DNA of 64,000 nucleotides from Alphaproteobacteria bacterium (GCA_024281375.1 JAJSAD010000096.1:32867-96866); one strand, 5' to 3'. Counted from the stretch's first letter, positions 13,780 through 34,850 are shown. Notes: a model not told the origin generated them from the letters alone. Numbers and translations: made by a program.

Positions 13780-16626
13780 TTACTCTAAATAAGGTTTTAA
13801 ATACTGACCGGTATAACTTTTAGAAATTTTCACAACATCTTCAGGAGATCCTTGGGCGATAATTTTTCCCCCACCGGTTCCCCCTTCAGGACCTATATCA
13901 ATAATCCAGTCCGCTGTCTTAATCACCTCCAAGTTATGCTCGATCACGATGATAGTATTACCCTGATCTACAAGGGTATGCAAGACCTCTAAGAGTTTTT
14001 TGACATCCTCAAAGTGCAGACCCGTTGTGGGTTCATCTAAAATATAGAGCGTTTTGCCTGTGGCTCGTTTCGCGAGTTCTTTAGAGAGTTTGACCCGTTG
14101 AGCTTCCCCCCCCGATAGTGTTGTAGCTTGTTGACCGATGTGAATATAGCCTAAGCCTACACGTCCCAAGGTCACAAGTTTATCTCTCACACTGGAAATG
14201 GCTTGAAAAAAGTCAATCCCTTCCTCAACGGTCATATCCAAAATATCTGCAATGGATTTGTCTTTAAAGGTAACCTCAAGGGTCTCGCGGTTATAGCGCT
14301 TGCCTCTACATTGATCACATTGTACATACACATCGGGCAAGAAATGCATCTCAATCTTTAGGACGCCATCTCCGCGACACGCCTCACAACGTCCCCCCTT
14401 CACATTGAAAGAGAAACGTCCTGGAGTATACCCCCTGGTTTTAGATTCAGGCAGGGCCGCGAACCACTCTCGAATAGGCGTAAAAGCCCCCGTATAGGTC
14501 GCTGGGTTAGAGCGAGGTGTGCGACCGATGGGAGATTGATCAATATCAATGATCTTGTCAATGTGCTCAACGCCCTTAATACTGTCATGTTCCCCCGCTT
14601 TTTCGCGCCCCCCATGCATTTGTTGGTTGAGCTCTTTATACAACGTTTCAATCACAAGAGAGGATTTTCCACCCCCAGACACCCCGGTTACCGCAATCAT
14701 TTTGCCTAAGGGAAAATCAACGGAAACATTTTGAAGGTTGTTAACCCTTGCCCCCTTAACAGAGATTTTCTTGCCTTTGTGACCGGGGCGACGTTTTGTG
14801 GGTAGCGCAATGACAGCTTCCCCTCGAAGGTATTTCCCTGTCAGACTATGGGGATGGTTTTCGACCTCTTTGGGTATTCCATGAGCAACGATTTCACCGC
14901 CATGAATCCCAGCGCGCGGCCCCATATCAATGAGGTAATCGGCCGCACGAATGGTATCCTCATCATGTTCCACGACAATCACCGTATTATCAAGGTCCCT
15001 CAAGCGCCGCAGCGTTTCCAGCAATCGATCATTATCTCTCTGGTGTAATCCAATGGAGGGCTCATCCAACACATACAGCACACCGGTCAGACCCGAGCCT
15101 ATTTGGGAGGCAAGGCGAATACGTTGACTTTCTCCTCCACTTAAGGTCCCTGAGGACCTAGATAAAGTTAAGTACCCTAACCCGACACTCAACAAAAAAC
15201 CAAGGCGTTCTTTAATTTCTTTTAAAATACGGTAGGAAATATCCTTCTCTTTTTGAGAGAGCTTTTTCTCTAAAGATCCAAACCACGCAACGGATTCCTC
15301 CACAGAAAACTGAGTAGTTTGAGAGATATGATGCTGATCAATTTTTATGCACAACGCCTCAGGACGCAAGCGATCCCCATGGCAGGCTTCACACACATGC
15401 TCTCGTTGATATTTCGACATATCATCCCGGCGCTTTGCGCTGTCTGTATCGCGCCAACGACGCTCAAGACTCGGGATGATGCCCTCAAAAGGTTTGTCAT
15501 TCTTGTAAGTATGGGCTTTATCTTTAATGGTCGTTGGAATTTTGACTTTACCCGAGCCGTATAAAAGACAGTCCTGTGTTTTTGGCATTAAGTTCTTAAA
15601 TGACAAAGTCGGATCATCGCCGCAATGCTCGATGACGGCTTTCATAATTTGCTGATAATAGAAGGTAAAAGAGCTATCCCATGGCGCAACGGCCCCCTCA
15701 AAAATGGACTTTGTCCGGTCGGGAACAACCAAGTCCTCATCAAAAGTGATACTCACCCCCAACCCATCACAAGACTCACAGGCTCCAAAAGGGCTGTTGA
15801 ACGAAAACAGGCGCGGCTCAATTTCATCCAGGGTAAACCCAGATACGGGACAAGAGAACTTTTCCGAAAAGGTCAGGCGCTCACCGTTTTTAACATCTTC
15901 CGCATACAACAAACCTTCCGATAATTTTAGAGCCGTTTCGATACTATCGGCCAAACGGGTCTGAAGATCAGGTTTAATGACCACACGATCCACCACCACT
16001 TCGATGGTATGTTTTAATTTCTTATCCAGAGGGGGAGCCTCATCAATGGTGCAGAGCTCTCCATCGATTTTTAAGCGTTGAAACCCTCGTTTTTTCATCT
16101 CAGCGATTTCTTTTTTATATTCGCCCTTACGACCTCGAACCAACGGCGCTAGCAAAAGAAGCTTTGTCCCCTCTTCCAACTCCATAAGGCGATCCACCAT
16201 CTGAGATACCGTTTGGCTCTCAATGGGGAGGCCCGTTGCCGGAGAATGGGGCACGCCAATTCTCGCAAAGAGCAAGCGCATATAATCATAGATTTCCGTC
16301 ACCGTTCCCACAATAGAGCGTGGATTTTTAGAAGTGGTTTTTTGTTCAATGGAAATAGCAGGCGACAAACCTTCGATGGATTCAACATCGGGCTTTTGCA
16401 TTAATTGAAGAAATTGTCGTGCATAGGCTGAGAGACTTTCCACATAGCGCCGTTGACCTTCGGCATAAATGGTATCAAAAGCCAGGGAGGATTTGCCAGA
16501 GCCACTTAAACCCGTAATCACCACAAGCTGATTCTTTGGAATATCAATACTGACGTTCTTGAGGTTATGCTCTTTAGCGCCCTTAACATAAATCACTGTT
16601 GTCTTATGGGAAACGGATTGGGTCAT
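13780..16626 (-). CDS. uvrA: excinuclease ABC subunit A
   Basis: 948 aa with two ABC modules ([12 protein letters not shown] and [11 protein letters not shown]), two LSGGE signatures and CxxC zinc modules. Confidence 0.97.
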
Positions 16627-16706
16627 GAAAAACTCTATTACTCAGTTAAGATGGTGACCTCTATATAAAAGGTTTTTGAGGAAAAAGGGAAGGAAAAAGG
16701 TGTTGG

Positions 16707-16765
16707 GAAGTTTTAAGAGTGATAATGGCAGAGACGTTATCAGGATAGTGTCGGCAATGAGGGGG
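16707..16765. repeat. direct repeat R-prime (pairs with 20899-20958)
   Basis: Collinear blocks GAAGTTTT, CGTTATCA and TGTCGGCAAT-GAGG are shared with the 20.9-kb copy at the same spacing (one 1-nt indel). Contains hairpin TGATAA..TTATCA. Confidence 0.65.
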
Positions 16766-16767
16766 CC

Positions 16768-16897
16768 GCCCAAAAGCGATACCCACTTGTGTCGAAAGCG
16801 TGCGCTGAGAGATCTGTGGATTTTTATCCACATGCTCTAGGAGGCGTACCATCACCTCGTTTTCCACGTGCGCCCGAGAGCGTTCAAAAACGGACAT
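16768..16897 (-). pseudogene. 5' fragment (first ~43 codons) of the wHTH EPS-type regulator, a truncated paralogue of 44729-45316
   Basis: MSVFERSRAHVENEVMVRLLEHVDKNPQISQRTLSTQVGIAFG matches residues 9-51 of the 195-aa regulator. Homology stops abruptly at ~16768, where repeat R-prime begins. Confidence 0.75.
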
Positions 16898-16915
16898 TAT
16901 CTAAGCGTTCCTTTT

Positions 16916-16957
16916 ATGATCATGATGTGATCATAGGGATGTGCTAGAGGAAGTCAA
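16916..16957 (-). promoter_or_regulatory. promoter-operator module, copy A
   Basis: On the minus strand: TTGACT (16952-16957), a 16-nt spacer, TATGAT (16930-16935). This overlaps the inverted repeat ATGATC-N7-GATCAT (16916-16934). Confidence 0.6.
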
Positions 16958-16965
16958 GAAAAAAA

Positions 16966-19900
16966 TCATGGCAAAGAAATGCTCTGGCTGAAAAGATTCA
17001 TGTGGCCGCTTTTTCCCCAAAGATCTCGATTTCCTACAATATAAAAGACGCGTTTGGCTCGGGATACGGCAACATTGAGAATATTGACTTGAGTTGTTGC
17101 CCAATTTCGAGCCCCCCCTTGTGCAACATCGGGGGCACCGAGCAAGAAGAAAACGGCTTCAGCCTCTTTGCCTTGAAACGTATGCACTGTACCGACATGG
17201 GTTTTCGCCCAATCGTAGATAGAAATATTATAGCCCTCAAAGAAATCCTTGTTGCTCATAAGGAGTGATCTCATGCCTTGTGCCACAGCTTTAAAGGGAG
17301 AAATGATAAACAAATCTGGCATATGACCAAGCCCTTGGGCCAGGGTCATTAATCTATTTAGAATCTCCACGCCTTCTTCTGGGCACCATTTATCTTCTGC
17401 GGTTCCCGCCACATGAATCCAGTGAGAGTCCCCCAAAATACCTTTAATAGGGGACGCTTTTTCAGCGGTAGCATAAACCATAAGATTGCTGTAGGCGAGA
17501 GCATTAGAAATTCTAAACATGGGATTTTCACAGCGTCGATGCACCAAAAGCGGGACGCCAATACGAACATCCTCAAAGTCTCTTTTAATAACCGTTCCGT
17601 ATGAATTAGCTTTATCAGAAAGGGTTTGAATGGACGCTTGAGGGGCCGTGAATCTTTTGGGATCCACGCCGTGATGGGTGGCTAAGCTGTCAAGTAAGGG
17701 TTTGGGAAGGGAGGTCACAGGAGGGATTTGTAGGGGATCTCCAACGGAGATAACGCATTTTGCGCGGTAAATAGCGCCAGCAGCAGCTTGCTGCGTACCT
17801 TGTCCTGCTTCATCAATAAGAAGCCAGCCAAAACTTTCTTTTCTCATGCCGCGTAACATGCCTGTAACGGAAGCGAAGGTCGTTGAGATCACAGGAACAA
17901 CGAGAAATAAACTGGCCCATAAATCTGGTAAAAGTCGATCTTGATCTGGGCTTAAGGTTTCACCACCTAAGACTTTCATCATGGAGCCTAAGTTTTTCCC
18001 CAATGGTTTTGCCGCTCCATCAATAAAGGCTTTGTGTACTTTAATGGCAGCAACAAAAACATCGTCGCGTATTCGTTGTTCTTTTTCGGTGAAGTTCGGA
18101 GAAAAGAGTTGTTGTTCTTTGAAAGGGCGCTCCCAAAAATCCTATGTAATGAGGTGGTCTTGCAAGTTTTTATAGGATCTAGATATGATACTTTTGCCTT
18201 GTGCTAAGTCTTTTTTGATCTCAGAAATTTCACCTTCTATGCCGTCATATTGGAACTGTAGCACTTTCATTTTTTTGGTGTTGGTATGGATAATGTCTTT
18301 TAAATTTAAAACTTCTCTTTGTTTCTTGGTGAGAGCAAAGATACATTGGTCATATTCTTCTCCCCAGGGGCTTTTCGTATCGTTGATGAATGCTCTTTTG
18401 AGTTTATAACTTCCAACTTCAAAGAGATTGGGCTTAAGATATTGATACTCTTTCTTTTGCTGTTCTAGGGATTTTAGTTGCATCTCGTCGTGTTCGAGAT
18501 CATTTTTAGTGTTTTTTATCTCTGAGTCTAGGATAGATATTTCACTTTTCATATTTGTGATTAAGGGGAGGGAGTGCTCTAATTCAAGCTCCTTTTCATT
18601 CATCTGGTGAAGGATCTGGCGGAGGTCTTGAATGTTGAAAGTGAGATATTCAGATTGCGATAGAGCAATATTGAAATTACTGCAAGACTCATCCCAATCC
18701 CATTCAAGGTCTTGAGAATTTTCGGGAATATCCTCTTGTTGAATAATAAGGGGGACTCGTTGGAATTTCTCACCTGTCTTTTTGTCTTTGATGGTGGCTA
18801 GCGGAACTTCTTCTCCGCGGACTTCTTTTAAATAAGTGCGAAGACTAGTATCGTCATTCCACCAGAATGTATTGGCAAAAGCGCTCCTATTTTTACTGTT
18901 ACCGAGGGCGACGGCTGAGAGCCCCCATGTTGCGTATTTATCCTCAGCTATGGCATCGCTGATGGTTCGAAAATAGCTTAGCTCATCGGTGAGATCTTCT
19001 GCGATTTGAGAAAGTTGAGGAAGTTCTTTGCTGATATTTTCAACGGCATTATTGTTTGAAGAGGCAACGAGAATTTCATGTCCTTTGAGTTTCTCATCAA
19101 GTTCATAAAAATCCCCAACCTTGGTGAAAGCATCTTCAGGGTATTTAAAGGAGCTTAAAGCTTTGGCACGATCGATGATAACAGAGGCAACAATATCACG
19201 GAGCAATGTTGTTTTTCCTGTTCCAGGAGGGCCGTTAATCGAAAATAGACCGCCCTCTTTTAAGGTTGTCGTTGCAATATTTACAGCCGTTTGTTGAAGG
19301 AGAACAAGGGGGTGACGTCCTGCGCTGGGCCAACGTCCAGCAGGGGTGTTATCAGGACTTAGAGTAGATTCCAATAAGTCATGATCTTTTAATAAATCTT
19401 GTAAGTCTGGTGAGGAAATGTCTCCAATATATTGTTGGAGAGCTTTTCCAGCTTCCTTGTCCTTTAGGGCTGTTTGAATCCGTTGTAAATCACTAAGGTA
19501 AAAACTGTTAAGAATAGGAGCATTTGGCGTTTTAGGCTTCTCATCTTTTTTTGGTTTTCTTTTGTATTGTTTGATAGAAAAGGTAGGCGATAAGCAGTCC
19601 TCTTCGGGAACGTTACAATTTTGAACGAGGAAGTTATAGGCATGATAAATTTTTTCCCAATTGAGGGGGAGCTTTTTTCCATCATCATTTGTCTCAAATA
19701 AGATATCGCGAAGACTCTGCTTGATAAGAGTTGCCGCAGTATTCCAACACCTCAGATGCTCGAGCTTGTTATGCAAAGAGCGACCATACGCCCAAGGAAA
19801 GCTTGACAGTGCAAGATCATTTTGATCATCGATGGGCACGCCCTCTTCATTCACGGTCACAACGGCAGTGGCGGCATAGCCACTATTGGAGATACGTTCT

Positions 19901-20640
19901 TGGGTATCGTCCTTATAAAGTTCAAGGAGTTTAGTGCTGGCATTTTTAACATCAATTGCGCCCAGATACACTTGATAGTATACGGTCATGCCCTCAGGAA
20001 TTTTTTGTGTTTTTCCCCACGGGAGGCGCGTTCCTGTTAAAGAAGCAACTTTCTTGGGGTCATTGCAAATATCCGCTGGTTTTTTATAGGAATTTGGGGA
20101 AAGAACTTCCGTTGTAATCCACGAATCAAGAACGTCAGAAGGTTTATTATCAAGGGAACGGTCTTTTCTAAAGGAAGGTTTTTTCTTGAGTTTATTTTTA
20201 AGAACTTCATCCCAGTCAATAAGACTTTCTGAGAGTGAGGGGAGTTTCTGATTTATTTGTTTTGGGAGGATATTTGCTCGATGGGCAACATTATTCTCAT
20301 TTTGAGGATGCCGAATAAGTTTTTCAATATGAGCGTCACTAAGCCCAGTTACTTCTTTGATACTGTCAACGGATAGGTTTGTTACTGAGATGTTTTCTAG
20401 AATATCATTGGCATAATCTGCGCCTGATACAAGGTAGTCGGCAAAGCAAAGCAGGATTGTATCTTCGCTGGTTGTCGCCCCTTTTTTGTGCTGGCCATCG
20501 TGCACAAATTTCCAGGTGCCATCTGTCTTATAGATTGTTGCGGAGATTTTAGAATTGTAATGATTACCATTGGGGCGCACCTCCCATTTACTGGATATTT
20601 CTTCGATTTCTCTAAGAATGGCTAGCGATGCGTCTTTCAT
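16966..20640 (-). pseudogene. Upf1/DNA2-like superfamily-1 helicase (~1,223 sense codons) interrupted by one in-frame TAG at 18142-18144
   Basis: Track ORFs 18142-20640 and 16966-18003 share a frame, and the 46 codons between them have no stop. Walker A GPPGTGKTT is in the upstream piece. LLIDEAGQ, VGDPLQIPPV, TVHTFQGKEAEAV and VAVSRAKR are in the downstream piece. Confidence 0.8.
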
Positions 20641-20797
20641 TTAAATTCCCTGCAAAATAGATAAGCAATTGAATTATTAAATATTTAAGCCGATTTGTCT
20701 ATGGGGGAAAGTAAGTGTAGGCTTTTATGAGACCATATAAGAAGAAAATGATAAGTACCCCCTAAAGTGGAGGAGACCCGGAAACCGTTGGTAGGGG

Positions 20798-20848
20798 TGG
20801 TGCCGGTTGAGAGACTCGAACTCCCGACCTACTGATTACAAATCAGAG
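20798..20848 (-). pseudogene. orphan 3' half of tRNA-Thr (UGU): anticodon arm, T-arm, acceptor 3' strand and CCA
   Basis: The minus strand reads CTCTGATTTGTAATCAGTAGGTCGGGAGTTCGAGTCTCTCAACCGGCACCA. T-loop TTCGAGT and anticodon loop TT-TGT-AA are present. No matching 5' acceptor strand or D-arm lies upstream. Confidence 0.75.
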
Positions 20849-20898
20849 TGGACTGGAGTGGTTGATGTGGCCTGGGGGATTGGTATGAAAGGGATTGA

Positions 20899-20958
20899 GA
20901 AGTTTTGAGGATGGTGACGATGAGGCGTTATCACCATATTGTCGGCAATTGAGGAGGA
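20899..20958. repeat. direct repeat R (pairs with 16707-16765)
   Basis: GAAGTTTTGAGGATGGTGACGATGAGGCGTTATCACCATATTGTCGGCAATTGAGGAGG, with hairpin ATGGTGA..TCACCAT. It abuts the stop of the last glycan-operon gene. Confidence 0.65.
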
Positions 20959-21798
20959 TTATTTTTTCAATCTGATGGTTATCAAGCGAGAAATTTCTTT
21001 TATAAAGAAGGATGGGCTATAAAAGAGAACATAGAAAAAATAAAAATGACGAAGGGGGTTGTAGATATCTCTTGCCCTTAAATAAGCATAAAATTTCGCA
21101 GATTTCTTCCGTGTTTTTACAAAATGAGGGTAGTATTTTTTTTGTATCCCAATGCCCTTAGCAATGATTTCTGCTTCATGATTGTTTGATAAAGTATCTG
21201 AGTGAAAACGATATCGATACAATGCTTTTTCCAAGGGTTGAATAAGGGTCAAAGTGGCGATTCTTAACCAGTACTCGTAGTCCTCACATAAAAAATCATC
21301 TTCAGAGTAGGGACCTACTTCTTGAGCAACTGGTGCTCGGTATAAAAAACAGGCTCCGACGACATTCCTAAGAATGAGATCTTGTGCAGGGCCGGCCTGA
21401 ATTTCCCCCGTTTTTTGTCCTTGTTCGTCAATAAGTTCCATACTTGTATATGTAAGGCCAATAGAAGGATCATTATCCAAAATCTGGAGCATTTCGTCTA
21501 ATGCATGAGGGAGATAAGCATTGTCACAGGATGTCCAAGTCCAGTACTTACCAGAAGCCTGTGTAAAACCTTTGTTTAAAGCGCCGGGTATTTTAAGGTT
21601 TTTCTCATTTCGTATATAAGTAATACGGGTGTCTTGTGATGCATATTTCTGCGCAATAGAGGCGGTATTATCTGAGGAATAATCGTCTACGATAATGAGT
21701 TCAAAGTCTTTGAACGTTTGTCCTAGAACGGACTCAATGGATTCAGCTAAATAGGGTTCACCATTATAGACAGGAAGAACAATTGAGATTTTAGGCAT
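20959..21798 (-). CDS. family-2 glycosyltransferase
   Basis: ISIVLPVYNGEPYLAESIESVLGQTFKDFELIIVDDYSSDNT shows the GT-A fold. The internal ATG at 21798 avoids overlap with the upstream gene. Confidence 0.85.
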   Translation of the reverse strand: MPKISIVLPVYNGEPYLAESIESVLGQTFKDFELIIVDDYSSDNTASIAQKYASQDTRITYIRNEKNLKIPGALNKGFTQASGKYWTWTSCDNAYLPHALDEMLQILDNDPSIGLTYTSMELIDEQGQKTGEIQAGPAQDLILRNVVGACFLYRAPVAQEVGPYSEDDFLCEDYEYWLRIATLTLIQPLEKALYRYRFHSDTLSNNHEAEIIAKGIGIQKKYYPHFVKTRKKSAKFYAYLRARDIYNPLRHFYFFYVLFYSPSFFIKEISRLITIRLKK

Positions 21799-23287
21799 GG
21801 GTGGTTTTTTTTCCAATCCAGGCACAAATGGGCGGGCCATCCGTTGTAATTAACTCTTGTACTTCAACTGTAAGGTTACTTTTTTCCATGAGGCGTGCAA
21901 CATAGTCCGCATCAAACCATTGTTCCCAAGCTTCTAAACGAATATTTTTCTGACGTTTAGAGTCTTTATCAATGATTAGGACAGTCCCCCCGGCTTTGCA
22001 GACTCTAGCAAGTTCTTTAATAGCAGCTTCGATATTTACAGCGTGCTCTAAGACTTCACAGCAGAAAATAATGTTGTAAGTTTCATTTTCTAGGGGAATC
22101 TGACATATATTTCCAACTTTTTTTTGCGCTGATTCTGGAAGATAGTCAAATAGGGCATCAGATATATCCATACCAGTCATCGAGAGGTTTAGTCCGTCGT
22201 TAATAAGTGCATGCATAAAACGCCCTTTACCGCACCCGATATCGAGTAATGTTACATTTTTTGTAGGAATATTTTTTTCTGATCTAACAATATTAGCAAG
22301 GCATTTATAACGACCATCTGAGTTATCAATTGCTTTTAGGAAGCTTTCTGCCCGATTGGTTTCAGCAAACTCCAATTGTAATTTTAGGTGAATAGCATCC
22401 AGTAAATATTTAACGGGCCAACTTATTTCCGACGTTTTAAAATAAGAAACAAAGCAGCCAGATCCGCCTCGAAAACCACCAGAAGCACGTTGTTTTTTTA
22501 TAGCATAATCGAGGCAAAGATTTCCTTCTTCTAACATTCCTAACTTATAAAAACAAACAGCATACTGGAGCATTGCCGTTAGGCAAACCCACCTTACATT
22601 TGGAAAAGCAGGAATGGCTCCACTTCGACGTTGGTATTTTTGTATGGAGCGCAAAGCAGTCAAAGCGCGTTCTTTTTCTCCAAGGTCAATGAGTGCCTCC
22701 ACAACATAGGCATGAAAATGAGTGATGACTTTAAATTCTGTTAAATCACTTTGAGCAAGATAGTAGTTGAGCGCACGCTGAACACCGTCTAGATAATCTT
22801 GTCGGTTATATTTCTCGGCAGCTAGTTTTAAGGGCTCAATAGCATAAAGGTGGATATATTCATTACCAATGGCCGTAATTTTAGACATTGTGGGTGTGTG
22901 AATGCGACCGTCTGAATCAATTTGCGAGAGTAGCCAATCACAACCTTTGAGAAAGGATCCCTCATATTTTTCGCCAAAGGGAATCAACTCATAAAGACCT
23001 TTAAGAATTTGCCCTGTATCAAAAGTATAGATTGTTTCAAGTTCTAAGTCTTGCCAAGCTCCTTCAGGCGTTTGAATAGAAAGGAGCCAATCTCCATAAG
23101 AAAGCGCTCGTTCTTTTTCTCCCCATTTTAAAAGAGTTGGGATATAATAACCGGTTACTTCTGGATAGGGTTTCTGCAGCTCGGACCCATGAGCAATACC
23201 ACCGTCAATCGTATTATCTTTGATCCACGCTCGAGCCTTTTCAAAAGAATCTAAAATGTATGAGGGACTTTGTTTATTGAAAATCAT
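21791..23287 (-). CDS. two-domain protein: N-terminal alpha/alpha-toroid-like region fused to a class I SAM methyltransferase
   Basis: The C-terminus has LLDIGCGKGRF (motif I) and VLEHAVNIEAAIKELARVCKAGGTVLIIDK. The N-terminal ~300 aa (GYYIPTLLKWGE, EGAWQD, DSDGRI) resemble prenyltransferase/terpene-cyclase-type repeats, but only weakly. Confidence 0.55.
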   Translation of the reverse strand: MIFNKQSPSYILDSFEKARAWIKDNTIDGGIAHGSELQKPYPEVTGYYIPTLLKWGEKERALSYGDWLLSIQTPEGAWQDLELETIYTFDTGQILKGLYELIPFGEKYEGSFLKGCDWLLSQIDSDGRIHTPTMSKITAIGNEYIHLYAIEPLKLAAEKYNRQDYLDGVQRALNYYLAQSDLTEFKVITHFHAYVVEALIDLGEKERALTALRSIQKYQRRSGAIPAFPNVRWVCLTAMLQYAVCFYKLGMLEEGNLCLDYAIKKQRASGGFRGGSGCFVSYFKTSEISWPVKYLLDAIHLKLQLEFAETNRAESFLKAIDNSDGRYKCLANIVRSEKNIPTKNVTLLDIGCGKGRFMHALINDGLNLSMTGMDISDALFDYLPESAQKKVGNICQIPLENETYNIIFCCEVLEHAVNIEAAIKELARVCKAGGTVLIIDKDSKRQKNIRLEAWEQWFDADYVARLMEKSNLTVEVQELITTDGPPICAWIGKKTTHA

Positions 23288-23290
23288 TTT

Positions 23291-25147
23291 TTAGGCCTGC
23301 AACTTTCGTTTGATTTTTTCAGAGAGGGGCTTTACTTTTTTTGCGATTAAATGAATTCTGTTTTTAATTCTATTTTTTAGGAACTTTTGGTCATTCTTAT
23401 TTTCTATATATGTATTATGCGGCAGTTGTTTCAATCCATTCATTTTATTATAAAATTCAGGAAAGGTGCTTTTAAAGGAAGGGTCAATAAGGTCAAAAAT
23501 ACTAATGATGGAATGGTAGTCATTCCATTCTAAGGGGGCTTGGTTGTTCGGTTCTCCAAGTAAATACAATGTTGTTAAATCAGAGTCGACATAAGATTCT
23601 TTTTTTATAACCACTTCTCGGGTATCAATCATATACTCATAATCTATAATATAAACTTTGGAGTTTTGTGTAATCAAAATGTTGGATGGATCTAAATCGC
23701 GATGAATAAACCCACTTTCAGAGAAAGCTATTAGTAGACTTTCTAAGGATTTCAATAATTTTATTTTTTTTGTTTGATTAAGGGACCCCCAGATATCTTT
23801 AGATAAATACTCTCCTTCGATAAATTCTGTGATAAGAAACTGATAGCCATGTGCGGATGTAGCATAAGAATGAGGAGCGGGAAAAAGATCAGGGTGTTTC
23901 CCATTGAAAAAAGATAGTAACTCGAATTCTTTTTTGACTTTTTTAGAACCATTGAACAAAAATTTAATAAAAACTTTTTGACCCGTTTTTGTTTTTGCTA
24001 AAAAGAATTTCGCGCCTTTGTCAGCCTTCCATAAATCAACCTTGTAGGCAGTTAAGTCAGATAGTTGCAGGTAAGAAAGGTGGTCTTTTGCAAGATCATA
24101 GTAAATGTCTGTGGATTGACGTTCATAAAAGGAGTTGAAAGATTGGTAATTTTTATCATGTAGGAATTTTTTTGTTTTATCGAGGTAAACATCAAATATT
24201 TTAGGCTGACTATCGCCGTAAATTTCGGTGCTTAGTTCTTCTAGTATGCGATGGTATTTGGCCTTCACTGAAAGTTTAAGAAAGTATAATTGATAGACGA
24301 GAAGGAAAAATTGATCTTTTATAGCAGGGATAAATGTTCCAGATTTTCCTTTTATTTTTGTCTTTAAAATATTTAGGAGCCATTTTGCTGGGATATATTG
24401 GTAGCTATGCAGATGAAAAGGAATAGACTCTTTCTTAATAATAACATTAAACATATAAGTATTTAGAACAGCGTCAAATTCTTTTGTGGCATTTAAGATA
24501 TAGCTGGCTGCATGGAGAGATGACTCATCTACAAGTAGATCAATGTCACTTTCTCGGCCGAGGTCTTTGGGGTGGGTTTTGTAGTCCCTGAGCATCACAT
24601 AGGAAAGTGTTTCATTTAGAATATAAAAAACCTGTTCTCGAGATGCCCAAGGTTTTTCTCCAATAAGTTCTTGCTCTATAACACGGTAGTTGCCCTGAGA
24701 TGTTTTATCGGGATTATAAGTCAGAAGGTAGTCATCAACACTAATCCCCAAAAGCATTGCAAGGTTATGGCGAGATTCCACTGGTGTGACCGTGCTATGG
24801 ATTACAAAAGGATCACCTGCCCATGTTCTGTACCGTTCTTTGCTATTGAGCATATTTATATTGATATGTGAATACCCGCTAGATGTAAGGCATGTTTCAT
24901 ATTTTGGTGATAAATCTTTCACGAGTACAAGTAAAAATGGCGCATTCCCTCGACGTTTTAAGTCCATTCCATTGGCTCGAAAATCTAGGCCATAAAAACG
25001 ACACATGTTCTTATGAAATAAATCAGAAGACCATTTTATTTCAATGGTTTCTAAAAGTTGGAATCTGCTTTTTATATCAGCAAGGATTTTCTCTTCTTCA
25101 TGACGAGCATTTGACCAAATAATAAATAAATGAAACTCAGGGGACAT
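23291..25147 (-). CDS. three-part protein with a C-terminal protein-kinase-like (PKL) fold domain
   Basis: Catalytic-loop-like FIHRDLDPSNILI followed by YIIDYEY. The mid region has SDIDLLVDES (nucleotidyltransferase-like?). The N-terminal ~150 aa are unrecognised. Confidence 0.5.
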   Translation of the reverse strand: MSPEFHLFIIWSNARHEEEKILADIKSRFQLLETIEIKWSSDLFHKNMCRFYGLDFRANGMDLKRRGNAPFLLVLVKDLSPKYETCLTSSGYSHININMLNSKERYRTWAGDPFVIHSTVTPVESRHNLAMLLGISVDDYLLTYNPDKTSQGNYRVIEQELIGEKPWASREQVFYILNETLSYVMLRDYKTHPKDLGRESDIDLLVDESSLHAASYILNATKEFDAVLNTYMFNVIIKKESIPFHLHSYQYIPAKWLLNILKTKIKGKSGTFIPAIKDQFFLLVYQLYFLKLSVKAKYHRILEELSTEIYGDSQPKIFDVYLDKTKKFLHDKNYQSFNSFYERQSTDIYYDLAKDHLSYLQLSDLTAYKVDLWKADKGAKFFLAKTKTGQKVFIKFLFNGSKKVKKEFELLSFFNGKHPDLFPAPHSYATSAHGYQFLITEFIEGEYLSKDIWGSLNQTKKIKLLKSLESLLIAFSESGFIHRDLDPSNILITQNSKVYIIDYEYMIDTREVVIKKESYVDSDLTTLYLLGEPNNQAPLEWNDYHSIISIFDLIDPSFKSTFPEFYNKMNGLKQLPHNTYIENKNDQKFLKNRIKNRIHLIAKKVKPLSEKIKRKLQA

Positions 25148-27435
25148 TATTTAAGATCTCTTTGTGGCATTATTCGATTAGAATACATCGTATCGCCTAT
25201 AATTTGATAATTTATTAAAAATTCTCTATGCAGTTCATCTATATCTTTCTTTATTTCTTTATTATCAATGAGGTTTAGGTGTTTATCTTTTCTAAAATTA
25301 TATATTTCATAAACGTTATTAACATCAACACGTGCAATGTATGGGTCTAATACGAATACCAGATAGCCATCCCAGTTAGGTAAAATCATTCCCCTTTTTT
25401 TTGCTTTTTTAACAGGGGCATGTAAGTTTCTACCAAAAGAAGTATACTCACCACCAAAGTTTAAAATGTTTAATAGCGTTGGCCCGACATCAATTTGAAA
25501 AGCAGGTTGATCTACTTTTTGAGGGGATAGGATACCGGGGGCATGTATTAAAAAGGGGATATGGTAGTGATCGTAAAGCGATAGCTTGCGATCGATGGAG
25601 GTATGGTCAGAAATTAATACAAAAATCGTATTTTCATAGACAGGGTTCTTTTTAACTTTATCAAAAAATTCCCTCAAGGCAAAATCTGCATAACGGGTAC
25701 TATAATAAAACCTTTCTTCGGTTGTGAGTGGATGATCAGGTCTGTGTCCTCTAGGTATTGGGACATGAGGGTGAGAGCTTTCAGTATGGGTGACGATAAA
25801 AAATGGTTTTTCAGCAGAAATCATTTTCTTGTAAAGTTTGTCATAGCCATATTCGTCATGGACATACCAAACACCATGGATTCGTCCATCTGTTTTTTCA
25901 GCACCGGTATCTCCTAGGTTGATATCTGGGTCTAAATCATCGTAACTTAGAAAGTTATCAAACAGAGGTGATATGTTTTCAATTCCCGCAATCATAAAAG
26001 GTAAACTGTAAAAATCGACATTTGTTTTAAATCGATCCTTATTTATAGGAAATAATGATAAAAATAATTTTTGATAGCGTGTAAGGATATTGGCTGTCGA
26101 ATCCCAGGTTGTTGAAAATTCTGACGAGTAGCCACGTTTCTTCAAAATTTTTAAATAACTGGAGCTCAGAGAGTGTGTTATTAAGCCTGTGTTTTTAGCA
26201 CTAACAACTCCCCAAATTGGAAGAGAACTACTAATCGCTGACTCCCCCTCATATGATGCCTCTGAGTTTGCAAAACAATGTTCGCAATATAAACTGTCCT
26301 TTTTGAGTTCCTCAATAAACTTAAGAGGGGTCTCCCTTCCTTTAAATGAGTCGCTTGTAGATTCCTCAAGTGTTTCAAGTACAATAACAACAACATTAGG
26401 CTTTTTAGATGTATCCCCTGCTTCTTTGAAACGAAAAGCAGGAAAGTCTTTAGATATAATTTTTTCATCCGAGGCCAAATTTTGTTGAATATAATTTTCA
26501 ATTTCTGTTTTTGATAAATTTAAATTTGGCCGAACAAAAAATGGAAGAAGGCGCTTCTCTTGACCAAAGCCCTTTATTCTCAGGTATTCAGAAAGAGAAT
26601 TAGATAAAAAATATTGAAGAGGGTTTTTGTTAAAGGAGTCTCTTTCGACTAAATCATTGTATTTTAAAGTGTATTTTCCATTTTCATATAAGTTGTTATT
26701 TTCTTTATAGTTTTGTATCCCAGAAGTTAAATGAAAAGTTATTATTAGAGCCGGTGGTAAAATAAAAATTGCTAAAACATTTTGGAATGTTTCTTTTTTA
26801 TAGGATATGTCTTGAGAGTGGAAAACACGATGATATAAAAAAGGGCTTATTAAGAAAAATATAACTAAGTATGCATAGTCATAAGATATATCTTTCATGT
26901 CTCTCAAATAAAGAAATTCTAAACCAACAGGCTTGTTGATGGCTGGGTACCACCCCCAGAGAAAGGCAATAAATGCAACAAATAATAGCGAAAGGGTTGT
27001 GTAAATTCTTATATCAGAGAGTTTTTTCCCCTTAATATTAAAAAAAGATGAAATAAGAAATGCTGTTTGTATCATTACTAATATTGGGAAGGCAAATCGT
27101 AAGGAGGAAAAATCATTTAATAAAAATGTGAAACTATTAAATGGGACGTTATATATAAGGATGGTGTATATCCGAAAACACATCGAAAACGTTAAATACG
27201 TTAATAAAAAGAAAATCATTCCTTTTAGATGTATATTATTACCCGTAGTCGGCCTATCTTTTCGGTCCCTGATAAAGTTTGCGATCATAATGATTACGTT
27301 GAAAGCTAATATATACACGAGTAGATTCATGCTTTGAGTTTTTATCACAGAGAAAGATAAATATACAGCCGTAAGAATTACAGCTATATAGGCTACTGTT
27401 TTTGAAAATTTATTTTGTAGAAATTTTATAAACAT
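25147..27435 (-). CDS. polytopic membrane protein with C-terminal LtaS/sulfatase-type (alkaline-phosphatase superfamily) transferase domain
   Basis: About 10 hydrophobic segments, then PNVVVIVLETLEEST, HTESSHPHVPIP and FVLISDHTS. The start is uncertain (ATG 27435, ATG 27483 or TTG 27498). Confidence 0.65.
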   Translation of the reverse strand: MFIKFLQNKFSKTVAYIAVILTAVYLSFSVIKTQSMNLLVYILAFNVIIMIANFIRDRKDRPTTGNNIHLKGMIFFLLTYLTFSMCFRIYTILIYNVPFNSFTFLLNDFSSLRFAFPILVMIQTAFLISSFFNIKGKKLSDIRIYTTLSLLFVAFIAFLWGWYPAINKPVGLEFLYLRDMKDISYDYAYLVIFFLISPFLYHRVFHSQDISYKKETFQNVLAIFILPPALIITFHLTSGIQNYKENNNLYENGKYTLKYNDLVERDSFNKNPLQYFLSNSLSEYLRIKGFGQEKRLLPFFVRPNLNLSKTEIENYIQQNLASDEKIISKDFPAFRFKEAGDTSKKPNVVVIVLETLEESTSDSFKGRETPLKFIEELKKDSLYCEHCFANSEASYEGESAISSSLPIWGVVSAKNTGLITHSLSSSYLKILKKRGYSSEFSTTWDSTANILTRYQKLFLSLFPINKDRFKTNVDFYSLPFMIAGIENISPLFDNFLSYDDLDPDINLGDTGAEKTDGRIHGVWYVHDEYGYDKLYKKMISAEKPFFIVTHTESSHPHVPIPRGHRPDHPLTTEERFYYSTRYADFALREFFDKVKKNPVYENTIFVLISDHTSIDRKLSLYDHYHIPFLIHAPGILSPQKVDQPAFQIDVGPTLLNILNFGGEYTSFGRNLHAPVKKAKKRGMILPNWDGYLVFVLDPYIARVDVNNVYEIYNFRKDKHLNLIDNKEIKKDIDELHREFLINYQIIGDTMYSNRIMPQRDLK

Positions 27436-28765
27436 TTGGAAAAATTCTTTTGATTTTAATTTTAATTTTAAGAGGGTCAACATCCTCAAAAAGGGCAAGC
27501 TTTTTGGATAAGTCTTTTTTTGTAAAAGGAGTCAATGTTTCAGCTGTGGCTTGATCTACATTATAGTGAAGAGGTAAAAAACGTCGCCCCAGCAGTTTTA
27601 GTTTTTGGAATAAGGTTCGAGAATCTGTAAGTTTATATGACCCTTTGTTTTATAATAATGGCTTGGCGTCCTTAACAATAAAATCAACAAACTCTTTGGT
27701 GCTGGTGCCAATATTATGGAAATAATCTTTTAGTTTTTTGTGAGCTTGTTGGTCTATCTTAGACTGTGTTTTGCTATCCCATTTTTTATTCTTTAAAAGG
27801 TAGTCAATCATTTCTTTGGCTTCTTCCAAGGTTTGAGGAACCTCTCCAAATGCTAGAGCCCATTTGTGACTGCTATGGCTATTTCCCTTTTGAAGCGAAA
27901 GAACTGGAATACTGGTTAGGTAACCTTGCATAGCAGTGGTGCAATCTTTATGTAATATAATTTTTGCACCTGACATTGCTTGGTTTATATCCCCCTTTTT
28001 TGATATGGTAACATTGGGGTAATGTTTAAATATTTCATCGTATTTTTCTTGAATTTCTACAGGGTGAGGTCTAATAAGAAATTGTTCATTTGGGTAACTT
28101 ATTATGAGTTCTTCTAAAATACCTTTGAAATCAATAAAGTGTGTTTTTTCTTCCTGATAACTATCTTTAAAGAGTTTCAAAGTGGTCGGGCTGATAAGGG
28201 AACAAGCCTTCAATTGTTCCTTTAGGGAATACCCCATAAAGCAGCCAAAGTTAGTATTAACTAAGATATATGACTGCGGGAGTGTTTTAATCTTAAGGGC
28301 CTGATAAAATGATTTATATCGTGCCGTTGAAAGATCAAAAGCAGGCGTTCCCATTATTATATATTTATTTTCAAGCCCTGAATTAGGATTGCGTGAAATA
28401 AGATCTACTTTTTGATTGCTACCCCATAAAAAAATTTTGCGCATACAGTGTAATGATTTTATAGCTGGTTCATGGGTTATTGCATAGACAGGGTTAGTGG
28501 CACCCTCGTCTGAAAGGTCATATAGGTAGATCCCTTTTTGCATTAGATGTTTATAATATGCCGGGTCTGGGTTGACACCTTTTTCTAAAAAGACTCCTCT
28601 ATAATTTTTATATTTTAATTCATCACGGATATAAGGTGGATTTCCTAAAATAACATCAAAACCAGCCTTGCAGAAATGCCTTGCTAAATTAAGTTTATAA
28701 TCAAGCTCACGTTTTGGAGACTCAATGGGAAGGAAGAGGGTAGGTTTTTCTAAACTTAAAGCCAT
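27410..28765 (-). pseudogene. surface-carbohydrate-biosynthesis-type protein; 371-aa ORF followed, after an in-frame TAA (27650-27652), by 79 further open codons
   Basis: The same frame stays open from 27649 to the TAA at 27410-27412 (NKGSYKLTDSRTLFQKLKLLGRRFLPLHYNVDQATAETLTPF...). This fills the only ~150-bp gap in an otherwise abutting operon. The family call is from memory of similar proteins in nonulosonic-acid loci. Confidence 0.45.
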
Positions 28766-28789
28766 TATAGATAATTAGTTAACTCAGTA

Positions 28790-29344
28790 TTATTCTGTGG
28801 TAAATTTTTCATAATCTTCGTATAGCAATCCAAATATTAGCAGTGAAGTGAAATGTTCCTTATATGGGAACATTTCCCTTAAGCAACCTTCTTCTTTAAA
28901 ACCACTTTTTTTTAATATTTTAACGCTTCCTTCATTAGCTCCATAACACCCTGCACATAATTTTCTTAACTTGAGTGAGGTAAAAGCAAACTGGCAAACG
29001 AGGGCAATGGCCTCTTTTGCCAGACCACGTCCTTGGGATGATTTTTTTCCTATAAAATAACTAATGTCAGCATATTTATATTTTGAATGTATGGGGCCTA
29101 ATTTTATATTTCCTATGTGTAACATAGTATCTTTTTCATATATGCCAAACAAAAAAACATTTGGATTGTTTTCTTGTTCTTCAACGAAATCTTGAACAGC
29201 AAGAAGGGAGTGAAGTGTATGTCGAATTTCTAGGTATTGGTTAATTTCTTCATCATTGAGCCACTGAACATACTCCGCATGGCAATCATGAGGGGTAAGA
29301 ATTTTTAATATTAGCCGGTCTGACTTTAAAACTATGTTATCCAC
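28790..29344 (-). CDS. GNAT-family N-acetyltransferase (RimJ/PseH-like)
   Basis: LKSDRLILKILTPHDCHAEYVQWLNDEEINQYLE and a QGRGLAKEA acetyl-CoA loop. A probable GTG start at 29344, 8 nt after the hisH-like stop, is preferred over the overlapping track start at 29455. Confidence 0.7.
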   Translation of the reverse strand: MDNIVLKSDRLILKILTPHDCHAEYVQWLNDEEINQYLEIRHTLHSLLAVQDFVEEQENNPNVFLFGIYEKDTMLHIGNIKLGPIHSKYKYADISYFIGKKSSQGRGLAKEAIALVCQFAFTSLKLRKLCAGCYGANEGSVKILKKSGFKEEGCLREMFPYKEHFTSLLIFGLLYEDYEKFTTE

Positions 29345-29352
29345 AATACAGC

Positions 29353-29973
29353 CTATAAATTGAGAAAATATTTCAAATGTCTTAGTCCGACAGTACCACT
29401 TTTTTCTGGGTGATACTGCAAACCAATGCAGTTGTTTTTTTGAATTATAGCGCAAATATTTTTGTCACCGTAAGGAATCGTTGCAACGATATCATCGGAT
29501 TCATCTATGAAGGCAAAAGAATGGACAAAATAGAGTTCTTCCGAAGGGGTTTCTGGCAACTTTATATTAGTATTTTTTTTATAATTAAGAGATTGCCAAT
29601 TAATATTTGGGAGTTTTTCACCAGGAAATGTTGGTAGCTTCTTTATGGTTCCCTTAATTATACCCAATCCGTCCGATAAGCCAAATTCCTCAGACTGTTG
29701 AAACAAAAGTTGCATCCCCACACAAATGCCTAAAAAGGGTCGGTCACTTTGAAGGAATTCCAATATACTTTCATGAAAATTTCGTTTTTTCAGGGCATCC
29801 ACGGCTACTTTAAAAGAGCCGACACCAGGCAAAATGAGGCGGTTGGCAGAGCGGATATCTGCGTCAGTTTGGGCGATATGAACGGTGGCACCACTATATT
29901 CAAGAGCTCTTATAAGGCTCAAAATATTATTGCAACCATAATCAATTATTGTAATATCGGATGAAACTAGCAA
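29353..29973 (-). CDS. HisH-like glutamine amidotransferase subunit (WbuY-type)
   Basis: ITIIDYGCNNILS, GICVGMQLLF (catalytic Cys) and LQYHPEKSG. Paired with a HisF-like gene in a glycan locus. Confidence 0.85.
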   Translation of the reverse strand: MLVSSDITIIDYGCNNILSLIRALEYSGATVHIAQTDADIRSANRLILPGVGSFKVAVDALKKRNFHESILEFLQSDRPFLGICVGMQLLFQQSEEFGLSDGLGIIKGTIKKLPTFPGEKLPNINWQSLNYKKNTNIKLPETPSEELYFVHSFAFIDESDDIVATIPYGDKNICAIIQKNNCIGLQYHPEKSGTVGLRHLKYFLNL

Positions 29974-30731
29974 TTTCTTACCTTAATTTTGTTAGAAGCT
30001 AATTCTTTTTTTATATTTTGAATGTTATTTTCTGCCCAATGGAGAATATGTGCCATCGAGGCACCAGTAACCTCAGTGTTTTTTATAAGACTTAGAAGAT
30101 GGTCATTTGTTCCCATACCTCCACTTGCAATTACAGGAATAATCCTATACTCAGAGATCTCTTGAGTAAGTGTAATATCATAACCATTTTTCATTCCTTC
30201 ATGATCTACGGAGGTCAATAATATTTCGCCTGCACCACGACTTTCCGCCTCTTTACTCCATTCTATGGGATCTTTATAAGTATGTTCACGCCCATTTTCT
30301 ATAAAGCACTCCCACAGATTGTTTTTTATTTTTTTAGCCTCAATAGATATGACTATACATTGTGAGCCAAAGCGAGTTGCTAGTTGATTAATCAGGTCAG
30401 GATTTTTGATAGCAGCTGTATTAATAGCTACTTTTTCCGCGCCAGCTAAAAGAGCCGTTTCAACATCACCAGCGTTTCTGATCCCACCACCAAGGGTTAT
30501 TGGAATAAAAATATTTTGTGTAGCCCTTTTTATAGTATCAAAAAGGTTGTTTTTCCCATATAGGCTGGCAACAGCATCCATAAAAAGAAGTTCATCAGCA
30601 CCGTCTTGATAGTACTTTTGTGCAAATACTAAGGGATCGCCAACTTTTCGAAGCCCTTCTAGGTTGATGCCCTTTATAAGATGCTGGCCCTTTATATCAA
30701 GCCTAGGTATGATCCTTACTTTACGGGGCAT
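29967..30731 (-). CDS. HisF-like cyclase subunit (WbuZ-type)
   Basis: RIIPRLDIKGQHLIKGINLEGLRKVGDP and GADELLFMD. The start is ATG 30731 or GTG 30752. Confidence 0.85.
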   Translation of the reverse strand: MPRKVRIIPRLDIKGQHLIKGINLEGLRKVGDPLVFAQKYYQDGADELLFMDAVASLYGKNNLFDTIKRATQNIFIPITLGGGIRNAGDVETALLAGAEKVAINTAAIKNPDLINQLATRFGSQCIVISIEAKKIKNNLWECFIENGREHTYKDPIEWSKEAESRGAGEILLTSVDHEGMKNGYDITLTQEISEYRIIPVIASGGMGTNDHLLSLIKNTEVTGASMAHILHWAENNIQNIKKELASNKIKVRNC

Positions 30732-32056
30732 ATTTGTGATCTTAGCTCCCACTTACCATTATTATTTTGCCAAATATGAGGTGATCTAAAGGAGTCAGCC
30801 AAGTTATCAAAATATTCTCTGCTAATAATGGGGGACTCAAAATTCTCACTTGCGACTGGGAATGTTTTTGAGTCAATACTTAAATATTTAAAAATTTCAT
30901 CTATAAATCTATCAGGGAATTCTCCATCAAATTTTTTTACAAGCGCCACACCATCCTCACGGGTAATATCATTTGAGCGAATTTCTTGGGAAGCATCACA
31001 ACTTGCCCGCCCAAAACCAAACTTAATAAACATTGAATAATAAAAAAGATCATCTATTTTATCATCTATGCTATTGTATTTACTGTAAGTTCCTGGAGTT
31101 CTTTCAGGGGATGGTTGAAAACCTCCATGTTCAACAGAATAGTAGTAACAACTCTGAGGGTGCCACTTAAGGTAATAACCTAGGTAATGAACAGCAATAT
31201 CATTCTTCTCAATAACTTCTGGGTTTACAGGAAGGTATAAATTTAGATCATTCTGAGTTAAGCCATAGTTCTCTTTTAATTCTAAAATAGATGTTCCACC
31301 AAGGTGCACATCATCAGGGTCAGATTCTGTAAAAAACTTCCAATCTCTTTGGGCCGATGTATTATCCTGTATAGGGTTATTATACTCTGCATCATTCTCA
31401 CCATAAAAAACTAATGGAATATCATGTTGAGCTGCTACTTTAGGGGCAAGTGCTTTTTGCCCAATGATAAAGGGTTGAAATGGATGGAATAAATTCTCGA
31501 GAGCCAGTCTTGTTAAGAGTCGATGAGTCTTTCCATTGGGGGTGCATAGCCAATTATCAAAGCCAGCATGAATCCACGACTGAAAATTTTTCCATCCCCA
31601 ATCTGTATACATGTTAGGAGCCCAGGTCATTGTGAGGGGGTTCATTCCAAATTCATATTTTAAAATATGGGCGGCATAAAAACTATCTTTCCCGCCAGAG
31701 CCGGGGACTAATACATCATATCTGCCATCGGAACGACGGTACCTATCACAAACTTCTTGTAGCTCCTTGCGCCTATCCTCCCAATTAATAGAATTGTTTT
31801 TTATGAAGGAAAATTTGCAGGGGTCACAAATGCCATCATCATTAAATGGAATTGTTGATTTCTTTGAACTTGCTTTATGTCGAAATTCCACTGTAGAGCT
31901 GGGGTATTGATTTGACATAGCGCAATTGCGGCAAAAAAGAACTTGCTCTGGTGAACCATAGCGGATTTCTCTATCAGTTAAGTTTGGAGCAAATTTATTT
32001 TTATCTATATATTTTTCTTTTTTATACATATGAGTATGATCCTTTTGAATTTCCAT
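30716..32056 (-). CDS. N-acetyl-sugar amidotransferase (PP-loop; PseA/PtmG/WbpG-like)
   Basis: PP-loop VLVPGSGGKDSFYAAHIL and an N-terminal Cys cluster CRNCAMSN..CDPC. Adjacent to the hisH/hisF-like pair. Confidence 0.8.
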   Translation of the reverse strand: MEIQKDHTHMYKKEKYIDKNKFAPNLTDREIRYGSPEQVLFCRNCAMSNQYPSSTVEFRHKASSKKSTIPFNDDGICDPCKFSFIKNNSINWEDRRKELQEVCDRYRRSDGRYDVLVPGSGGKDSFYAAHILKYEFGMNPLTMTWAPNMYTDWGWKNFQSWIHAGFDNWLCTPNGKTHRLLTRLALENLFHPFQPFIIGQKALAPKVAAQHDIPLVFYGENDAEYNNPIQDNTSAQRDWKFFTESDPDDVHLGGTSILELKENYGLTQNDLNLYLPVNPEVIEKNDIAVHYLGYYLKWHPQSCYYYSVEHGGFQPSPERTPGTYSKYNSIDDKIDDLFYYSMFIKFGFGRASCDASQEIRSNDITREDGVALVKKFDGEFPDRFIDEIFKYLSIDSKTFPVASENFESPIISREYFDNLADSFRSPHIWQNNNGKWELRSQICPVK

Positions 32057-34848: not shown

Positions 34849-34850
34849 GC

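Follow-up and report, generated by a model that had tools for sequence, protein, structure and literature searches.

A probable decayed tRNA-Thr attachment site between uvrA and a surface-glycan gene cluster in an uncultured alphaproteobacterium

Introduction

Islands and integrative and conjugative elements (ICEs) that a tyrosine integrase inserts into tRNA genes include a class in which crossover takes place in the anticodon loop (Islander database; PMC4383910, citing Williams 2002). An attP centred on the anticodon is the commonest attachment (att) sublocation, found in 2083/3919 islands; the island lies 5' of its displaced 3' tDNA fragment, between this fragment and the regenerated gene, and Islander counts 125 tandem arrays at tDNA (PMC4383910). 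Here, we analyse a 64-kb stretch of DNA from an alphaproteobacterium (GCA_024281375.1, JAJSAD010000096.1:32867-96866; hereafter the window) and, within it, a 4.2-kb module (16707-20958) that separates uvrA from a large glycan gene cluster and contains two related repeats (R' and R), the 5' end of a regulator gene, a broken helicase gene and the 3' half of a tRNA-Thr(UGU). We propose that this region is probably a graveyard of integrative elements that targeted tRNA-Thr(UGU) by means of a P4-type tyrosine integrase.

The locus shares with Islander-type islands a displaced 3' tDNA fragment running from the anticodon stem to CCA with arm DNA adjoining it and, in a relative, a P4-type integrase with an arm-binding domain beside an intact tRNA; tandem or decayed arrays at a single tDNA are also well documented for such islands. 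It differs from them in that the window holds neither an integrase nor a regenerated tRNA, that R' comes without a tRNA fragment, and that arm and core are conserved across lineages while nearby genes decay. A second comparison is with the Rickettsiales amplified genetic elements (RAGE) and the related F-type/TraA(Ti) ICEs known from intracellular alphaproteobacteria, in which an integrase is expected at one end (PMC10732058). F-type tra/trb genes, a TraA(Ti) relaxase, helicase cargo, truncations and pseudogenes are common to both; in contrast to RAGE, few tra genes are visible in the window, the hallmark cargo (SpoT, Dam, histidine kinases) was not seen there, the host is not a member of the Rickettsiales, and a 23-kb glycan cargo is not among the described features of RAGE. 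The locus also resembles variable surface-glycan loci of the O-antigen or capsule type, since the regulator at the 5' end and R and the helicase at the 3' end are conserved while the content of the cluster varies between genomes, but its 3' flank is an att-type sequence with a tRNA fragment and not a housekeeping gene. What we describe is thus a common kind of bacterial genome scar, the outcome of routine island decay that calls for no new mechanism. What is unusual is that an arm and an anticodon stem-loop are selectively conserved without an integrase nearby, and that a large surface-glycan cluster stands between att ends.

Results and Discussion

The features of the window are collected in Table 1; numbers preceded by L designate the loci with which it was compared.

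Table 1. Location of the features discussed in the text, in window coordinates.
Feature	Coordinates	Strand	Description
uvrA	13780..16626	-	Last core gene before the accessory region; Pfam UvrA_inter and UvrA_DNA-bind
R'	16692..16771	-	Putative degenerate copy of the att-arm module; box A TTGCCGACACT ATCCTGATAAC, box B AAAACTTC
Regulator stub	16770..16896	-	First 42 codons of a MarR_EPS-like regulator, cut exactly at the R' edge
Promoter/operator copy at the stub	16893-16964	-	TTGACT, 16 nt, TATGAT; palindromic operator TATGATCACATCATGATCAT; points toward uvrA
Upf1-like SF1 helicase pseudogene	16966..20640	-	Would encode 1224 aa; in-frame amber at 18142-18144
Helicase promoter-like site	20673..20701	-	TAGACA, 17 nt, AATAAT; within an upstream stretch of ~100 nt that aligns with L003 and L005
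Block D	20717..20749	-	Homologous to the sequence directly downstream of the intact tRNA-Thr in L021
tRNA-Thr(UGU) 3' half	20798..20846	-	Anticodon stem-loop to CCA; putative att core and displaced fragment
Spacer between R and core	20847..20887	-	C-rich, G-poor
R	20881..20960	-	Putative att-arm module; box A tandem 11-mers (TTGCCGACAAT ATGGTGATAAC), hairpin, box B (CCTCAAAACTTCTCAATCCC)
Glycan gene cluster (nonulosonic/legionaminic-acid type)	20959..44466	-	PglK-like flippase to GT2; low GC
Intact MarR_EPS-like regulator with promoter/operator	44729..45368	-	
SRPBCC gene with third promoter/operator copy	45452..45960	-	
Non-coding block shared with L021	46944..47055	-	81% over 116 nt; in L021 between integrase island and regulator
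Group II intron with reverse-transcriptase/maturase ORF	47141..49257	+	Rfam RF02012, RF00029; Pfam RVT_1, GIIM
Split TraA(Ti)-type relaxase (49529-50596, 50612-52909) and DUF7146-Toprim protein	49529..54529	+	
Conjugation genes	59189..62776	-	TraD/TrwB coupling protein, TraG_N fragment, F-type TrbC

The tRNA-Thr half is identical at 49/49 positions to the intact tRNA-Thr(UGU) of two other alphaproteobacterial metagenome-assembled genomes (MAGs; L008 and L009), the identity beginning at position 28, in the 5' arm of the anticodon stem, and ending with CCA. A first-pass annotation made from the sequence alone had recognised this orphan half and its CCA end, but had given it a length of 51 nucleotides (nt) instead of 49. 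ARAGORN called no tRNA gene at 20798-20846, the Rfam tRNA model scored 17.7 bits there, under its gathering score, and the only tRNA gene that the two methods found in the 64-kb window is a tRNA-Leu. A permuted two-piece tmRNA or an expressed tRNA-like RNA was considered and rejected, ARAGORN and Rfam being negative and the sequence being plainly a tRNA-Thr 3' half. Among the characters used by Islander, the locus has (i) a 3' fragment with identity to a cognate tRNA and (ii) a fragment start at the 5' arm of the anticodon stem, in the window as in the related locus L003. An intact cognate tRNA-Thr at the other end was not found within the 64-kb window and neither was a tyrosine integrase: Phage_integrase is missing from the scanned open reading frames (ORFs) of the window and tblastn with two integrases of the family described below was negative, as the earlier remark that no integrase is present had it. 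Our analysis supports the reading of the tRNA half as a true att remnant, left by an integrative element that targets tRNA genes, and the assignment of R to the same att region.

R' and R are true homologues. The collinear exact blocks noticed in the first pass, three in number, occur only at 16707-16758 and 20899-20949, with no such pair in 100 shuffles; the Smith-Waterman score is 52 (shuffle mean 15.1, standard deviation 2.5; 0/2000 shuffles as high), and nhmmer extends the homology to 16692-16771 and 20881-20960, with an identity of roughly 72% and no third copy in the window. The blocks are collinear, but their spacing is near-identical and not, as had been claimed, identical, the first gap being one base longer in R' (20 nt) than in R (19 nt). 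Both copies do fold into a hairpin, if weakly (-6.8 and -4.6 kcal/mol, z -3.3 and -2.3), with stems that are out of register between them. Both also carry the pair of box A 11-mers, in diverged form; box A can be written as TTGCCGACAATATGCCGACAAT. The outer limits agree with the first description: R adjoins the last glycan gene, its edge falling one base short of the GT2 stop codon (20959), and R' starts where the homology to the regulator stops (about 16766-16770), at a measured distance of 80 nt from the uvrA start (16626). An intrinsic terminator was considered for R and rejected, no T-run following the hairpin on either strand. The sequence after R' resembles a tRNA no more than shuffles do, and a CTGA/GTAAT string 61 nt past R', considered as a possible tRNA relic, was dropped as unsupported.

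R is also rare. Among 25 loci, 18 of which were covered by the nhmmer search for R, single copies occur in L003 and L004 and none elsewhere, against two in the window. The R pattern had 0 matches in 185,579 GTDB species genomes, a collection that does not hold the source genome, and R and box A had 0 matches in two viral-contig scans; the JGI metagenomes gave three matches to R only, all to one unrelated coding sequence and taken as chance, and in a plasmid collection nothing similar to R', the regulator stub or R was found, the tRNA part alone being matched. The copy counts across the genomes, viral contigs, metagenomes and loci searched speak against a dispersed, high-copy repeat of the repetitive extragenic palindrome or miniature inverted-repeat transposable element kind. 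No relative has an intact tRNA-Thr at this position either, so that neither of the observations named in the first pass as contrary to its reading was made.

The same junction is present in relatives. In L003 and L004 a helicase gene (66% amino-acid identity) lies directly downstream of a glycan cluster in the same order as in the window, and the intergenic DNA aligns with window 20832-20954, while R', the regulator stub and uvrA are all missing and the glycan clusters have almost no genes in common with that of the window. Between L003 and the window, R is 82% identical, with perfect blocks of 21 nt and 26 nt, and the anticodon stem-loop is conserved at 15/15 positions; the corresponding values are 56% for the spacer, 26% for the remaining tRNA half and 70% (nucleotide) for the helicase gene. 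It follows that the junction predates, or is independent of, the window genome, and that the break at the anticodon stem is a feature of the family. Because L003 keeps R and the stem-loop while the remainder of the tRNA half decays, selection acts on R and the core and not on tRNA function.

An integrase enters the picture in L021 (contig TARA_SAMEA4397255_METAG-scaffold_225) and L022. There, one strand carries in succession an intact tRNA-Thr(UGU), 133 nt, the 32-nt sequence TCTCCCCCAATTGCCGACAATATGCCGACAAT, which consists of two tandem 11-mers, about 80 nt, and an integrase gene (Arm-DNA-bind_3, Phage_integrase); beyond the integrase come Fic, SNF2, HipBA, an integrase C-terminal relic, the non-coding block of Table 1, the regulator and a glycan cluster. 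On the tRNA strand, this order is collinear with the minus strand of the window. TCTCCCCCAATTGCCGACAATATGCCGACAAT matches R of L003 at 30/32 positions and R of the window at 19/20, with 0/2000 shuffles as high; the half tRNA of the window is identical to the L021 tRNA at 48/50 positions, and block D is 26/32 identical to its L021 counterpart (score 34, shuffle mean 17.6; 0/2000 shuffles as high). Box B of R and the spacer have no significant collinear homology to the L021 region upstream of the integrase (p about 0.24-0.37), and the stretch after R' is marginal in the same comparison (p about 0.04) and is not relied on. L022 belongs to the same assembly and has the same coverage as L016, one of the uvrA relatives. 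In L024 (IMG/VR UViG_3300003757_000005; positions 205-255 and 380-405), an integrase that is 54% identical is preceded by analogous tandem 11-mers, TTGCTACCGAT ATGCTACCGTA, situated about 35 nt ahead of the matched coding region or about 20 nt ahead of the ATG, and a 3' fragment of tRNA-Thr(CGU) lies about 130 nt further upstream. The 11-mers that the window shares with the tRNA-integrase spacer of L021, together with the analogous pair in L024, are candidate integrase arm sites.

Some peculiarities of these loci may be recorded. In the intact tRNA-Thr(UGU) of L021/L022 (1219-1294) the 3' strand of the T-stem is CCCCC and not CTCTC, which gives an A-C mismatch; the half tRNA of the window retains the consensus form of the T-stem and the decayed L003 remnant also reads TCCCCCAAC. 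It may be that the island supplies a tRNA 3' end with a slight defect. In L021, positions 9182-9342, where the island ends distally and just before the shared block, hold a reverse-oriented integrase C-terminal relic and a 73-nt duplicate of part of the Fic gene region, a further sign of repeated events at the hot spot. In L024, the tRNA fragment has its 5' stem arm replaced and, unlike in L021, is inverted relative to the integrase; no second copy of it exists on that contig.

What we observe directly is homology, orientation, a pattern of conservation and, in relatives, the context of an integrase; from these observations we derive the following model. The attP of the element would have the tRNA-Thr anticodon stem-loop as its core, followed by a copy of the remaining 3' half of the tRNA, and the arm DNA flanking this core would be recognised by the N-terminal arm-binding domain of the integrase. 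Upon integration, one end would regain a complete tRNA, and the other would receive the displaced 3' half joined to an arm of the element. The succession of R, the spacer (~40 nt) and the 49-nt half tRNA (20798-20960) would then be the distal junction, either attR or an attP-like joint of two tandem elements, with R as the arm and box A, a tandem 11-bp repeat pair, as the presumed binding site of the integrase. Given that islands are found on the 5' side of the 3' fragment that they displace (PMC4383910), the element closed by this junction would be on the higher-coordinate side and would comprise the glycan cluster and the MarR_EPS regulator, followed by conjugation genes in decay; the intact tRNA-Thr and the integrase gene of this element would be expected past 64 kb. 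A second, older, related element from a tandem array may survive as the helicase pseudogene, the regulator stub and R'; it would have had the same distal layout (regulator, cargo, R) and has presumably lost its integrase, cargo and core. The R'-uvrA join would be a later, lineage-specific rearrangement or secondary-site event.

The helicase has decayed elsewhere as well. L005 encodes its closest homologue (79% identity), beside a pseudogenised integrase and with TraD, a relaxase-type ATPase and HU nearby. This L005 gene (8093-9916) is independently broken, with a stop after codon 278, and abuts the integrase, which is 5'-truncated and frame-broken and belongs, at 44-53% identity, to the L021-integrase family. 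A helicase-integrase pair is thus decaying in another lineage too. The helicase homologue in L006 sits near ParAB.

Several points weigh against the model. The integrase and the intact tRNA-Thr are absent from the window, so that the other end of the element is unseen, and no recognisable core or tRNA remnant follows R'. Box A alone is shared with L021, neither box B nor the spacer being common to both, and it lies 3' of the tRNA in L021 and 5' of the half tRNA in the window, which makes its presence in both arms an assumption; in L024, moreover, 11-mers and tRNA fragment have opposite orientations. Because the regulator and glycan loci of L019 and L020 have no tRNA or integrase within 10 kb upstream, the glycan locus could be chromosomal and merely lie beside the hot spot. 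Finally, a perfect tRNA fragment here and a decayed one in L003 require either recent or repeated recombination or independent events.

The glycan clusters themselves suggest an alternative that has some merit but that we consider unlikely, namely that R is the functional end of the glycan locus, a Rho-dependent terminator or protein-binding hairpin that serves as a conserved 3' flank for homologous cluster swaps, that the tRNA half is an earlier scar with no connection to it, and that the stub and R' are a second glycan locus emptied of its contents. The regulator heads the glycan cluster in the window and in five relative loci (L019-L023; proteins 84-91% identical) in which the cluster content varies, as would a conserved 5' flank, and the gene content of the window cluster differs from that of L003, L019 and L021. 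R starts right behind the last gene of two different glycan clusters, its transcript strand is C-rich and G-poor with a hairpin at the same place in three copies, and the join of stub and R' resembles two flanks brought together. Yet box A stands between tRNA-Thr and integrase in L021/L022, far from the end of a glycan cluster, the hairpin is missing in the L021 copy, and there is no U-tract. The perfect conservation over 21-26 nt goes beyond the needs of a Rho-utilisation site, and the anticodon stem-loop is conserved along with R in L003.

A variant of the att model, to which we give little credence, would see in R and the anticodon stem-loop a site that still works and that selection maintains even away from any integrase gene, on which the integrases of tRNA-Thr islands act in trans to swap regulator-to-R glycan clusters between elements or genomes. 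If this were true, serotype switching would proceed by site-specific and not by homologous recombination.

It is also improbable that the 4.2-kb module is one small island inserted between uvrA and the glycan locus, with R and R' as its duplicated att sites. The first-pass annotation had read the region as the scar of a tRNA-targeting island; the att scar is upheld by our analysis, the self-contained 4.2-kb island is not. The direct repeats do bracket the module exactly, with outer edges at the stop of a glycan gene and at a point 80 nt from uvrA, and a defence-type helicase is typical island cargo. In true attL/attR pairs, however, the repeated sequence is the tRNA segment. The module is not bracketed by its own att duplication, because the tRNA half is not repeated at R' and R is not derived from a tRNA. 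Neither does the module appear to have been inserted at this place, because L003/L004 have glycan cluster, R, tRNA remnant and helicase joined in this way but no R', stub or uvrA, and R is closer to R of L003 (82% identical) than to R' (about 72%). The synteny comparison around uvrA proposed in the first pass points the same way: in five of five loci of relatives (UvrA 81-88% identical in amino acids) the neighbour on the R' side is a divergent pdh E1a-E1b-E2 cluster and not the glycan locus, and none of the five has a tRNA-Thr, intact or otherwise, or an R'-like sequence beside uvrA. Since these relatives carry the pdh cluster there, the adjacency of uvrA and R' is specific to this lineage.

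Nor do we find it probable, by a similar measure or slightly less, that a regulator-to-R block was duplicated locally and then lost everything from regulator codon 43 to R, with no mobile element involved. The order of promoter, regulator 5' end and R' is the one expected from such a deletion, and the duplicated promoter with ~43 regulator codons that had been reported at first does exist (42 codons; 127 nt, 87% identical to 45171-45297). The copy is not a recent local one, however. Identity is 87.4% between stub and window regulator, 87.5% between stub and L021 orthologue and 88.2% between window regulator and L021 orthologue, so that the copies would be as old as the species split or foreign. 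The stub differences are mostly synonymous. Equidistance and synonymous change together indicate that the stub derives from a gene that functioned in a separate but related unit and is not a recent local duplicate, which fits a second element better than local duplication. The promoter part tells against the latter as well: of the three promoter/operator copies in the window, upstream of the stub (16893-16964), the regulator (45290-45368) and the SRPBCC gene (45885-45960), that of the stub is nearer to the SRPBCC copy than to the regulator's own (81% vs 64%; 70% vs 64% in a gapped comparison). The tRNA half and the link between box A and the integrase would, moreover, be left unexplained.

Least probable is a metagenome contig misjoined across repeats: the source does look like a MAG contig (99 kb, a single record), but the repeats are short (about 70-190 nt) and, at 64-87% identity, too divergent to mislead an assembler, and L003 and L004, which are independent assemblies, show the same key junction.

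The decayed att site that we favour would explain how an interrupted helicase gene came to lie with a truncated regulator gene and half of a tRNA. Our analysis sets at 16.7 kb the left edge of extensive accessory DNA, which continues past 64 kb in this uncultured Holosporales-like alphaproteobacterium, and the model would place a 23-kb nonulosonic-acid glycan cluster within or next to an integration hot spot at tRNA-Thr. It would also provide a candidate att signature for the integrase family, made of tandem 11-mers (TTGCCGACAAT) and an anticodon stem-loop core with about 100 nt of arm and spacer DNA between them, which could help to delimit related islands in MAGs.

Additional features of the window

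The first 16.6 kb are core genome (iPGM, DEAD-box helicase, ETF-QO, tRNA-Leu, tig, clpP, uvrA), and all of the DNA from 16.7 kb to the window end is accessory. The rearranged block of 16.7-45.4 kb delimited in the first pass is accessory as stated, but it does not end at 45.4 kb, the group II intron, TraA, TraD, TraG and TrbC extending it to the window end. UvrA is 88% identical to proteins of alphaproteobacterial MAGs and 73-74% identical to those of Caedimonas and Paracaedimonas, its closest named relatives, so that the host is an uncultured and probably Holosporales-like alphaproteobacterium.

The helicase pseudogene is split by a single in-frame TAG, as first reported: the pieces 18145-20640 and 16966-18141 and the stop codon itself (18142-18144) all share one frame, the AAA_11 domain straddles the stop, full-length homologues measure 1220-1248 amino acids (aa), and the L005 homologue has Glu at the amber position. 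At E <= 0.01, Pfam leaves the 440-aa N-terminal region without a family, and nothing in the PDB matches the 832-aa N-terminal product. Among described systems, the Upf1-like SF1 core resembles the MkoC component of Mokosh (PADLOC MkoC/MkoA; E 5e-36 and 2e-22). It differs in that the match is limited to the helicase core (profile positions 243-951 of 1136) and that the gene is broken by a stop codon; with the core only, the in-frame amber and no nuclease family found, it does not qualify as Mokosh type II (MkoC). A box A relic within the helicase promoter, CCCCCATAGACAAAT, was not significant.

The regulator scores 66.7 bits against MarR_EPS (TIGR04176), whose curated cut-off is 88. The three promoter/operator copies of the window consist of the promoter TTGACTT followed by the near-palindromic operator TATGATC(A/G)CA(T/G)CA(T/G)GATCAT, and the same site is conserved ahead of the regulator in relatives (L019 9933-10001, L021 9933-10001); it is probably the operator through which the MarR_EPS-like protein regulates itself. 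The orphan regulator promoter (16957-16930) faces uvrA, which follows after about 300 nt free of predicted terminators, and uvrA may now be read from a promoter controlled by the glycan regulator. P0260, a predicted protein of 176 aa from an ENA contig of 1 kb, has GT2 glycosyltransferase domains behind an N-terminal part that resembles the regulator (74% identity over half of the query) and may be another truncation or fusion of the regulator at the edge of a glycan locus.

In the glycan cluster, GC is 32-36% across one part (21000-31000) as against 42-47% in core genes, a low GC being usual for horizontally exchanged surface-polysaccharide genes. The cluster includes a 618-aa protein with a kinase-like domain (23291-25147).

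In the conjugative region, no integrase is present, TraG is reduced to a fragment, the relaxase gene is split and lacks its 5' end, and TraD, TraG_N and TrbC are the only further conjugation genes before the window end; a complete ICE or RAGE-like set is thus not contained in the window. A complete-looking group II intron lies directly upstream of the relaxase, which is without its first ~30 residues. An interruption of traA by this intron was considered and dropped, since no TraA-like N-terminus or traA 5' exon is encoded upstream of the intron. Further on, a 61-nt AT-rich repeat (57633-57693 and 58580-58640, 77% identity) precedes two small genes, and its copies are probably duplicated promoter regions.

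Three repeats were noted in the core genome. An intergenic sequence of 52 nt at 2532-2583 recurs 2.8 kb away at 5318-5369 with 90% identity and inverted ends (TTTTTTGAC...GTCAAAAA). Degenerate tandem repeats of 63-168 nt occupy 3188-3635, within the C-terminal part of the DEAD-box helicase ORF (2941-4842), and a 25-nt inverted repeat (96% complementary, 56-nt loop) lies directly downstream of clpP, at 12639-12744.

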